DNA of 64,000 nucleotides from a virus (Duplodnaviria > Heunggongvirae > Uroviricota > Caudoviricetes), in IMG/VR virus record IMGVR_UViG_3300029996_000255. One strand, given 5' to 3'. The notes beneath the pieces were generated by a model. That model ran no database searches and was not told where the DNA came from. It was given only the letters and a program-made list of their open reading frames with translations. The translations under genes and the position numbers were made by a program. Of this stretch, positions 60,614 through 60,907 are shown piece by piece (positions within the stretch are counted from its first letter, which is position 1; the number at the start of each line of letters is the position of its first letter).

Positions 60614-60907
60614 ATGATGAATTTTGGACAGGCAATTGAAGCATTAAAGAATGGTAAGAAAGTAGCAAGAGTTGGATGGAATGGTAAGGGTGTGTTTTTG
60701 TATATGACAACAGGAAGTGTTGTTCATTTAGATGAAATGAAATCAGAAACAGCAAATTATTTAAGAAGTTTTTGTAAAGATAAAGGTATGGACGAAATTG
60801 AAATTTGCCCACATATTGATATGAAGACAGCAGACAATAAGTTAGTTATTGGATGGCTTGCAAGTCAGACAGATATGCTTGCTAAAGATTGGAACGTGGT
60901 AGAGTAA
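60614..60907 (+). CDS. DUF2829-like protein ([30 protein letters not shown]); candidate Tad2-type signalling-nucleotide sponge
   Basis: N-terminal sequence pattern characteristic of DUF2829/Tad2 proteins. Confidence 0.5.
   Translation: [97 protein letters not shown]

Follow-up and report, generated by a model that had tools for sequence, protein, structure and literature searches.

We analysed a 64,000-nucleotide stretch of virus DNA (Duplodnaviria; Heunggongvirae; Uroviricota; Caudoviricetes; IMG/VR record IMGVR_UViG_3300029996_000255), hereafter the window, with a focus on a small gene at positions 60614-60907 whose product is a member of the Tad2 family, formerly DUF2829. The initial annotation, made from the sequence alone, had named a DUF2829/Tad2-like protein at these coordinates, which are correct, as is the N-terminal stretch that it quoted (residues 2-31). 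The gene, its discussed parts, its translation signal and the two genes that precede it are listed here:

60045..60590, plus strand: two small genes 5' of tad2 (59 amino acids, p59; 121 amino acids, p121), from the list of open reading frames (ORFs); same cassette, tight spacing
60598..60604, plus strand: Shine-Dalgarno sequence AAAGGAG, read from the sequence, 9 nt 5' of the tad2-like ATG
60614..60907, plus strand: tad2-like coding sequence, 97 amino acids, stop codon included (ORF list, sequence, PF11195, PDB sequence matches, AlphaFold2 and Foldseek)
60677..60685, plus strand: codons for W22-N23-G24, β1-β2 loop; aligns with SPO1 W25/N26 and HgmTad2 W21/N22/G23
60710..60811, plus strand: codons for residues 33-66, long insertion between β2 and β5, from the alignment
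60854..60874, plus strand: codons for W81-L-A-S84-Q-T86-D87, C-terminal helix motif; HgmTad2 W87-L88...S90, T92 and D93 identical, SPO1 W73, S76, T78 and D79 equivalent

The ORF is intact, opens with ATG-ATG and ends in a TAA stop at 60905-60907, with the AGGAG part of its ribosome-binding site at 60600-60604, 9 nt ahead of the ATG. The preceding gene, which belongs to the same run of genes on this strand, stops 23 nt ahead of it. Pfam and PHROG profile searches with p59 and p121 gave no match, and scans for promoter and terminator consensus sequences around the tad2-like gene found nothing over background. An overlapping minus-strand ORF (60516..60812) was treated as spurious, since all supported genes of the window (about 31% GC) lie on the plus strand and GC skew is positive throughout.

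Membership of the Tad2 family was borne out by profile matches, by the sequences of solved structures, by the predicted fold and by conservation of the pocket for glyco-cyclic ADP-ribose (gcADPR). A hidden Markov model search against DUF2829, as proposed in the initial annotation, was significant (Pfam PF11195, now Tad2-like; E = 1.2e-26; 93.4 bits against a curated cutoff of 25 bits), and the complete profile (positions 1-73 of 73) is covered by residues 2-96; PHROG 1048 (E = 3e-30) and PHROG 872 (E = 9e-27) were also matched, while no NCBIfam model matched the protein. With phmmer against all PDB sequences, matches were restricted to Tad2/AcrIIA7 chains (E = 7.8e-23 to 2e-14), i.e. SptTad2 (8WJD; E = 7.8e-23, the best among solved structures), HgmTad2/AcrIIA7 (8KBI; E = 2.7e-21), pdAcrIIA7 (9KZR), ModTad2 (8V3E/9EIB; E = 4e-19) and SPO1 Tad2 (8SME/8WJE; E = 2e-14). 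The AlphaFold2 monomer model, built on 74 homologues, comprises a helix (residues 4-12), six strands and a second helix (residues 85-89), in the arrangement of the Tad2 fold (helix, antiparallel sheet, short helix), with a mean predicted local distance difference test (pLDDT) score of 90.5 and a predicted TM-score of 0.77; it is weakest at residues 51-60 (mean pLDDT 70). Foldseek against the PDB returned 24 matches with E ≤ 0.001, all of them Tad2/AcrIIA7 chains (query-normalized TM-score, TMq, 0.61-0.76), the 25th match lying at E of about 1. More than 6,000 homologues of the protein were found in a metagenomic protein collection.

The canonical gcADPR pocket is conserved. Structures of SPO1 Tad2 with gcADPR show contacts by W25, N26, W73, D79, T78, I63, T65, D67, H71 and S76 (bioRxiv 10.1101/2023.05.01.538930), and those of HgmTad2 by W21, N22, G23, M76, A78, T82, V84, L88, S90, T92 and D93 (PMC10680739). 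By alignment, the pocket residues of the window protein are W22, N23, G24, M70, T72, D74, V78, W81, L82, S84, T86 and D87, and each primary contact is identical to that of SPO1 Tad2, HgmTad2 or both. The SPO1 residues W25, N26, W73, D79, T78, S76, D67 and T65 correspond to W22, N23, W81, D87, T86, S84, D74 and T72, all identical; SPO1 I63 is replaced by M70, which is the residue of HgmTad2 at this place, and H71, a second-shell position, by I79. Nine HgmTad2 contact positions (W21, N22, G23, M76, V84, L88, S90, T92 and D93) are likewise all identical. In solved Tad2 proteins the W-N-G loop between β1 and β2 covers gcADPR and binds its diphosphate, and the C-terminal helix motif contacts the ribose hydroxyls and the adenine, further contacts coming from a hydrophobic residue and a T of the neighbouring strand; the W and N of the loop are found in 119 of the 120 closest homologues. 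The sequence of helix α1, which lies at the tetramer interface of SPO1 Tad2, is highly conserved in the window protein. SPO1 Tad2 (gp34.65; 8SME-8SMG, 8WJE), the founding member of the family, resembles the window protein in fold (TMq 0.61-0.67) and contacts gcADPR by the same W, N, W, S, T and D, but differs in overall sequence (39-43% identity), in a 24-residue insertion that closes the second pocket by F44 stacking, and in coming from a lytic Bacillus herellevirus.

Because the pocket residues are identical and experimentally verified homologues are 48-50% identical, we consider it likely that the window protein would sequester 1''-3' gcADPR and inhibit type I Thoeris; family membership, the predicted monomer fold, the identity of the ligand contacts and the location in an accessory island (see below) are established here. 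Four homologues were experimentally verified by Yirmiya et al. (Suppl. Table 12 of the Tad2 discovery paper), including those of Nitrosospira sp. Nsp1 and Ruminococcus callidus, both inhibitors of type I Thoeris. The Nitrosospira protein (50% identity) has in common with the window protein the strand motif P-H-[IV]-D-M-K-T, which as P-H-x-D-M-K-T is invariant in the subfamily of the window protein, and the R. callidus protein (48% identity) shares a sequence stretch that starts with [CV]; unlike the window protein, both have shorter insertions, and their pockets are known by homology alone, there being no solved structure.

By analogy with the solved homologues, the protein would form a homotetramer of two V-shaped dimers, in which 1''-3' gcADPR (3'cADPR), and probably 1''-2' gcADPR too, would be bound and sequestered in two symmetric pockets that lie between non-dimeric protomers. 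This gcADPR is the signal that comes from ThsB, the Toll/interleukin-1 receptor (TIR) protein of type I Thoeris, and with this signal sequestered the NADase ThsA would stay off and the phage would escape abortive infection. This predicts that the lineage of the phage is confronted with NAD+-depleting immunity of the TIR/Thoeris type, its host probably being a low-GC gut Firmicute.

Several points weigh against this assignment. The nearest verified homologues are no more than 48-50% identical, and identity to ModTad2, which is specific for histidine-ADP-ribose (His-ADPR), is as high (45-48%) as that to gcADPR binders, so that specificity has to be called on the pocket residues alone. Two second-shell positions of HgmTad2 are changed (A78 to T72 and T82 to K76). 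Finally, the sole hint at the host came from a genome scan, whose one close match (80% identity) lies on a contig of 36.7 kb that was binned to a Lachnospiraceae metagenome-assembled genome and is not syntenic with the window.

Some Tad2 proteins bind a second class of ligand. HgmTad2 and SptTad2 also bind the cyclic dinucleotides cGG and 3',3'-cGAMP, for which the long β2-β5 insertion forms a pocket, and binding is lost in the HgmTad2 mutants R31A/N85A, S47A and F70A (PMC10680739). The insertion of the window protein is of about 34 residues, compared with 35 in SptTad2, 41 in HgmTad2 and 24 in SPO1 Tad2, and is thus of the long type. The determinants R31, F70 and N85 are, however, replaced by T32, I64 and I79, and because of these replacements the window protein is not predicted to bind cGG/cGAMP in the known way; only K46-S47 is retained, as K43-S44 in the phmmer alignment. 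The cyclic-oligonucleotide binding that had been suggested for this protein is hence unsupported as far as the known cGG/cGAMP site is concerned. The R/F/N triad of that site was found in none of the 120 closest homologues.

SptTad2, from a Sphingobacterium thalpophilum phage (8WJD), is close in sequence (47-49% identity) and in fold (second Foldseek match after 8KBI, TMq 0.74), with identical GWNGKG loop and GWLASQTDM helix and nearly the same insertion length (35 against 34 residues), but it binds cGG and 3',3'-cGAMP via R, F and N where the window protein has T32, I64 and I79, and the middle of its insertion has no sequence relation to that of the window protein. HgmTad2, the metagenomic AcrIIA7 (8KBI-8KBM, 8WJC), is similar in fold (TMq 0.75), in sequence (44-45% identity) and in having no N-terminal head domain, but the insertion of the window protein is 7 residues shorter and the pocket residues R31, P32, D34, F70, T71 and N85 are not kept. 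The window protein should be filed neither in the cGG/cGAMP dual-sponge group, whose defining feature was looked for and is lacking, nor in the ModTad2 clade (with CcaTad2 and TmoTad2).

An extension of gcADPR sequestration, which does not exclude it, is a sponge for two ligands, in which a second signal would be bound at the V-dimer interface (a cyclic dinucleotide other than cGG, the Pycsar nucleotides cUMP or cCMP, or an unknown molecule). We regard this as possible, in a tentative way. The same interface binds cGG/cGAMP or cUMP in HgmTad2, SptTad2 and MoTad2 (PMC10680739; PMC12393519), the insertion is long (about 34 residues, 35 in SptTad2 and 24 in SPO1), and K43-S44 aligns with the phosphate-binding K46-S47 of HgmTad2. 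Moreover, residues around the second pocket are strongly conserved in the 120 closest homologues (H67 in 120, D69 in 119, I64 in 111, R or K43 in 115, S35 in 89 and I or V79 in 113), which suggests a constrained site with a chemistry unlike that of the characterized proteins, in which H67 is replaced by Y or I, D69 by C, A or F (as aligned for SptTad2, HgmTad2, ModTad2 and SPO1 Tad2) and I/V79 by N, T or H. Against this, the mutation-validated cGG/cGAMP residues R31, F70 and N85 have become T32, I64 and I79, the confidence of the model is lowest in residues 51-60, and conservation of H67 and D69 could be structural, e.g. at the dimer interface; the subfamily signature could be structural or could mark a pocket with another ligand. 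A more specific proposal, which we consider rather unlikely, is that the window protein belongs to a large Tad2 subfamily without a member among the solved chains matched, marked by the invariant H67-x-D69-M-K strand, the conserved R/K43 and I/V79 and the long insertion, and that the second pocket of this subfamily has been retuned to an immune signal other than cGG/cGAMP (HgmTad2 and SptTad2) and cUMP (MoTad2), making it a dual sponge of undescribed ligand specificity.

It is improbable that the protein has another Thoeris specificity, i.e. that it binds His-ADPR (type II) or N7-cyclic ADP-ribose (type IV) instead of, or besides, gcADPR. Such Tad2 proteins exist: Tad2_71 inhibits types I, II and IV (PMC12393519), and ModTad2, from a Myroides odoratus prophage (8V3E, 9EIB), binds His-ADPR without inhibiting type I Thoeris (bioRxiv 10.1101/2024.01.03.573942). 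The latter is 45-48% identical to the window protein and similar in fold (TMq 0.73). However, the pocket motif of the window protein is of the gcADPR type and differs from ModTad2, which also binds cUMP, at L82, A83, Q85 and T86 and by an additional residue ahead of W81; the pocket helix reads I-G-W-L-A-S-Q-T-D in the window protein and A-T-W-T-P-S-V-S-D in ModTad2 (GWLASQTD against TW-TPSVSD when aligned). In addition, type II Thoeris is not inhibited by SPO1 Tad2, whose motif is likewise of the gcADPR type (bioRxiv 10.1101/2024.01.03.573942).

Still more improbable is a role as an anti-CRISPR of the AcrIIA7 type, in which the tetramer would capture the tracrRNA in a basic groove and so keep Cas9 from being loaded. 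Binding of tracrRNA in such a groove was reported for headless AcrIIA7 (= HgmTad2), and K58, K66, K71, K93 and R101 were proposed as RNA-binding residues in pdAcrIIA7 (PMC13133391). The window protein is 44-45% identical to the metagenomic AcrIIA7 (E = 2.7e-21), lacks the N-terminal head domain as active AcrIIA7 does, and aligns K12, K25, K43 and R51 with four of the five groove residues (K66 aligns with V20). Nevertheless, K12 and K25 are conserved family-wide, K25 being part of the GWNGKG ligand loop, and are therefore not discriminating; the anti-CRISPR activity was reported in vitro only, against SpyCas9 and for one protein; nothing points to a type II-A CRISPR system in the host; and the discoverers of Tad2 argue that the family is primarily anti-Thoeris (bioRxiv 10.1101/2023.05.01.538930). 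That the gene encodes a decayed or non-defence DUF2829 protein without sponge activity is scarcely credible: among the first five homologues to be tested, one showed no activity against type I Thoeris, and many DUF2829 domains are fused to other domains of unknown role, but the inactive homologue was later found active on another Thoeris type (bioRxiv 10.1101/2024.01.03.573942), and here the reading frame is intact, the ribosome-binding site strong and the pocket residues fully conserved, with an identical protein on seven independent contigs and the motif retained in variants of 94-97% identity.

The tad2-like gene lies in an accessory region of a large phage. The seven metagenome contigs that encode the identical protein are phage-like, the longest measuring 185 kb, and a 94% identical variant is found on a 193-kb contig labelled 'Caudoviricetes sp.'. 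A megablast search of positions 58000-64000 against 50,697 phage records gave no match, so that these records hold no sequenced close relative. By comparison with related loci, the following region was delimited:

~59915-63700 of the window, and loci L017-L096: hypervariable accessory island downstream of p420/p146

The conserved upstream genes p420 (58252-59514) and p146 (59474-59914) are shared by 80 IMG/VR contigs of up to 216 kb. In a survey of 70 related loci with p420/p146 and 3 kb or more of downstream sequence, the part beyond p146 proved extremely mosaic, with 653 ORFs falling into 219 clusters, the commonest of which was present in 18 loci. Tad2 occupied the island slot in only two of the 70 loci, while p121 was frequent in islands of related phages without Tad2. 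Most island clusters had no Pfam match; the recognized cargo included a protein with a T7 gp5.9-like RecBCD-inhibitor domain (10 loci), as well as Thg1-like, RNA ligase, AAA_33/HD kinase, HNH endonuclease, DUF488-N3a, DUF1653, YopX, DUF7446 and Dam methylase proteins. Judging from domain names, the Thg1-like, RNA-ligase and AAA_33/HD kinase genes may constitute an RNA-repair set. The accessory island is thus of anti-defence type and carries Tad2 only sporadically, in keeping with the role predicted for Tad2.

The corresponding slot of a sister phage (locus L058, 8865-9134) is occupied by a chimeric Tad2 allele. The first 24 and last six residues (DWNVVE) of this allele are identical to those of the window protein, and its middle, with the insertion and strand region, is of the short-insertion type (..VEYGAYIAIKTAQGNVVPWLPSQTDML..), which suggests recombination within the tad2 gene. 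Outside the island, the match of a 72-amino acid ORF of the window (53132-53350) to AAA_33/zeta-toxin kinases is limited to their P-loop start. A 298-amino acid version with a full-length AAA_33 kinase domain is found in the island of related phages, and the window ORF is probably a truncated remnant.

Four intergenic regions of the window contain pairs of perfect 14-bp palindromes (TACTATATATAGTA), 31-32 bp apart, at 38335/38367, 48648/48680, 59958/59989 and 60915/60946:

38335-38380, intergenic: paired palindromes
48648-48693, intergenic: paired palindromes
59958-60002, no strand, intergenic: 14-bp palindrome pair (TACTATATATAGTG / TACTATATATAGTA, 31 bp apart) at the start of the p59-p121-tad2 cassette
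60915-60959, no strand, intergenic: second copy of the cassette's paired palindromes, directly 3' of tad2

Counted on both strands, the palindrome was matched 16 times, compared with 2.0 expected. The pairs are followed by a conserved GAAAT..TTCG..GGAG stretch, and the last two bracket the p59-p121-tad2 cassette. The pair after p146, where the variable island begins, is retained in most of the related phage loci. As RNA, positions 60915..60959 would fold into a 19-bp hairpin (z = -3.8); we rejected it as an intrinsic terminator, as there is no T-tract and it consists of two copies of the recurring 14-bp palindrome. The paired palindromes are likely a promoter/operator (protein-binding) element or a boundary of cassette recombination.

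The window also contains genes of NAD+ metabolism, as follows:

44676-45188: PncA-like isochorismatase
45192-46028: Prs-like protein (PF14572; Pfam and PHROG)
46000-47493: Nampt/Namat-like protein (PF18127 and PF04095; Pfam and PHROG), overlapping the Prs-like gene by 29 nt
47456-47902: HAD-like protein, 148 amino acids
47895-48638: NadE NAD synthase

The NAD+ reconstitution pathway NARP1 (Adps and Namat) is defined by adjacent Prs-family and Nampt-family genes that share a phage operon (bioRxiv 10.1101/2024.02.11.579819), and the Prs-like/Nampt-like pair of the window carries the domains that define it. The best PDB match of the Nampt-like protein, 9w5w/9w5x, scored 396 bits compared with about 195 for canonical Nampts; we infer that this entry is the SpbetaL1 Namat, whose published numbering is fitted by an S-F-T-Y-Q-Y-N-T-R stretch. 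Specificity of Namat towards ADP-ribose pyrophosphate (ADPR-PP) depends on a published selectivity clamp formed by SCL R40 and SCH F392 and Y396, of which one of three residues was aligned in the Nampt-like protein (F392 kept, Y396 replaced by V and R40 by M), with a 9-residue insertion in the helix. No adenylyltransferase for nicotinamide or nicotinic acid mononucleotide (NMN/NaMN) was recognized in the cluster (44676-48638), which looks like a NARP1-type pair within Preiss-Handler salvage genes. The pair would act one step downstream of Tad2, restoring NAD+ should an NADase effector fire after all.

The gene at 39367-40119, which had been taken as Sir2, matches the NCBIfam equivalog NF001752 at 311 bits and PF02146 over its full length, and is a CobB-type NAD-dependent protein deacylase. 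Its PADLOC matches are marginal only, and with the CobB equivalog match this rules it out as a defence or counter-defence SIR2 NADase. The proposal of the initial annotation that the phage is adapted to NAD+-based immunity remains plausible on the strength of Tad2 and the NARP1-like pair; the Sir2 gene adds nothing to it, since a deacylase of the CobB type gives no direct evidence on host immunity.

DNA methyltransferase genes are unusually dense in the window (5533-7167, 40577-42210, 42268-42771, 49738-50610, 50969-51514 and 62801-63625) and include a DUF4942/MTS methylase, two D12-class Dam enzymes and a C5-cytosine methylase, whereas the Eco57I-like and N6-adenine-methylase-like matches are weak, both falling under the Pfam cut-offs. 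The C5-cytosine methylase seems to be split into an N-terminal (40577-41065) and a C-terminal part (41665-42210), with an ORF at 41001-41699 between them. A tyrosine integrase (23136-24152) is followed by a MazF/PemK-family toxin (24516-24938; E = 7e-29), for which no antitoxin partner was identified; the two suggest that the phage is temperate or lives like a plasmid and carries an addiction or abortive module. The 514-amino acid product of 27014-28558 gave a PADLOC match to NsnA (E = 1.5e-11) and a weak Pfam match to the GmrSD N-terminal, DUF262-like domain (25 bits, under the cutoff of 33.2), and may be a defence-type nuclease borne by the phage itself. A TnpB/Cas12f-like (IS605 OrfB) gene (29770-31158) lies within the phage, and some 1.3 kb downstream of it are the adjacent tRNA genes Gln-TTG and Lys-TTT (32494-32644). 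The 703-amino acid protein of unknown function encoded at 35800-37911 (PHROG 1735, E = 1e-255) is about 55% identical to proteins of the Bacillus herelleviruses TsarBomba and BCP78, with further matches in phages of Salmonella, Klebsiella and Caulobacter, hundreds of them, and the 116-amino acid product of 1045-1395 matches Pfam GP17, superinfection exclusion gene product 17 (E = 8e-21).

Tad2 homologues are already known in thousands and annotated in Pfam, and one more of them establishes no new principle; the result here is a confident functional label for a small gene of a large (150-215 kb), uncultured and nearly unannotated gut phage. The hypervariable island that carries the gene can be searched for unknown anti-defence genes, and with the residues that mark the subfamily near its second pocket, ligand screening has an inexpensive target. 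Should the second pocket indeed serve a further signal, the swapped middle of the L058 allele would reflect selection on exactly the insertion module. Together, Tad2 and the NARP1-like pair would be an example of layered counter-defence, in which the immune signal is sequestered and NAD+ is also rebuilt.

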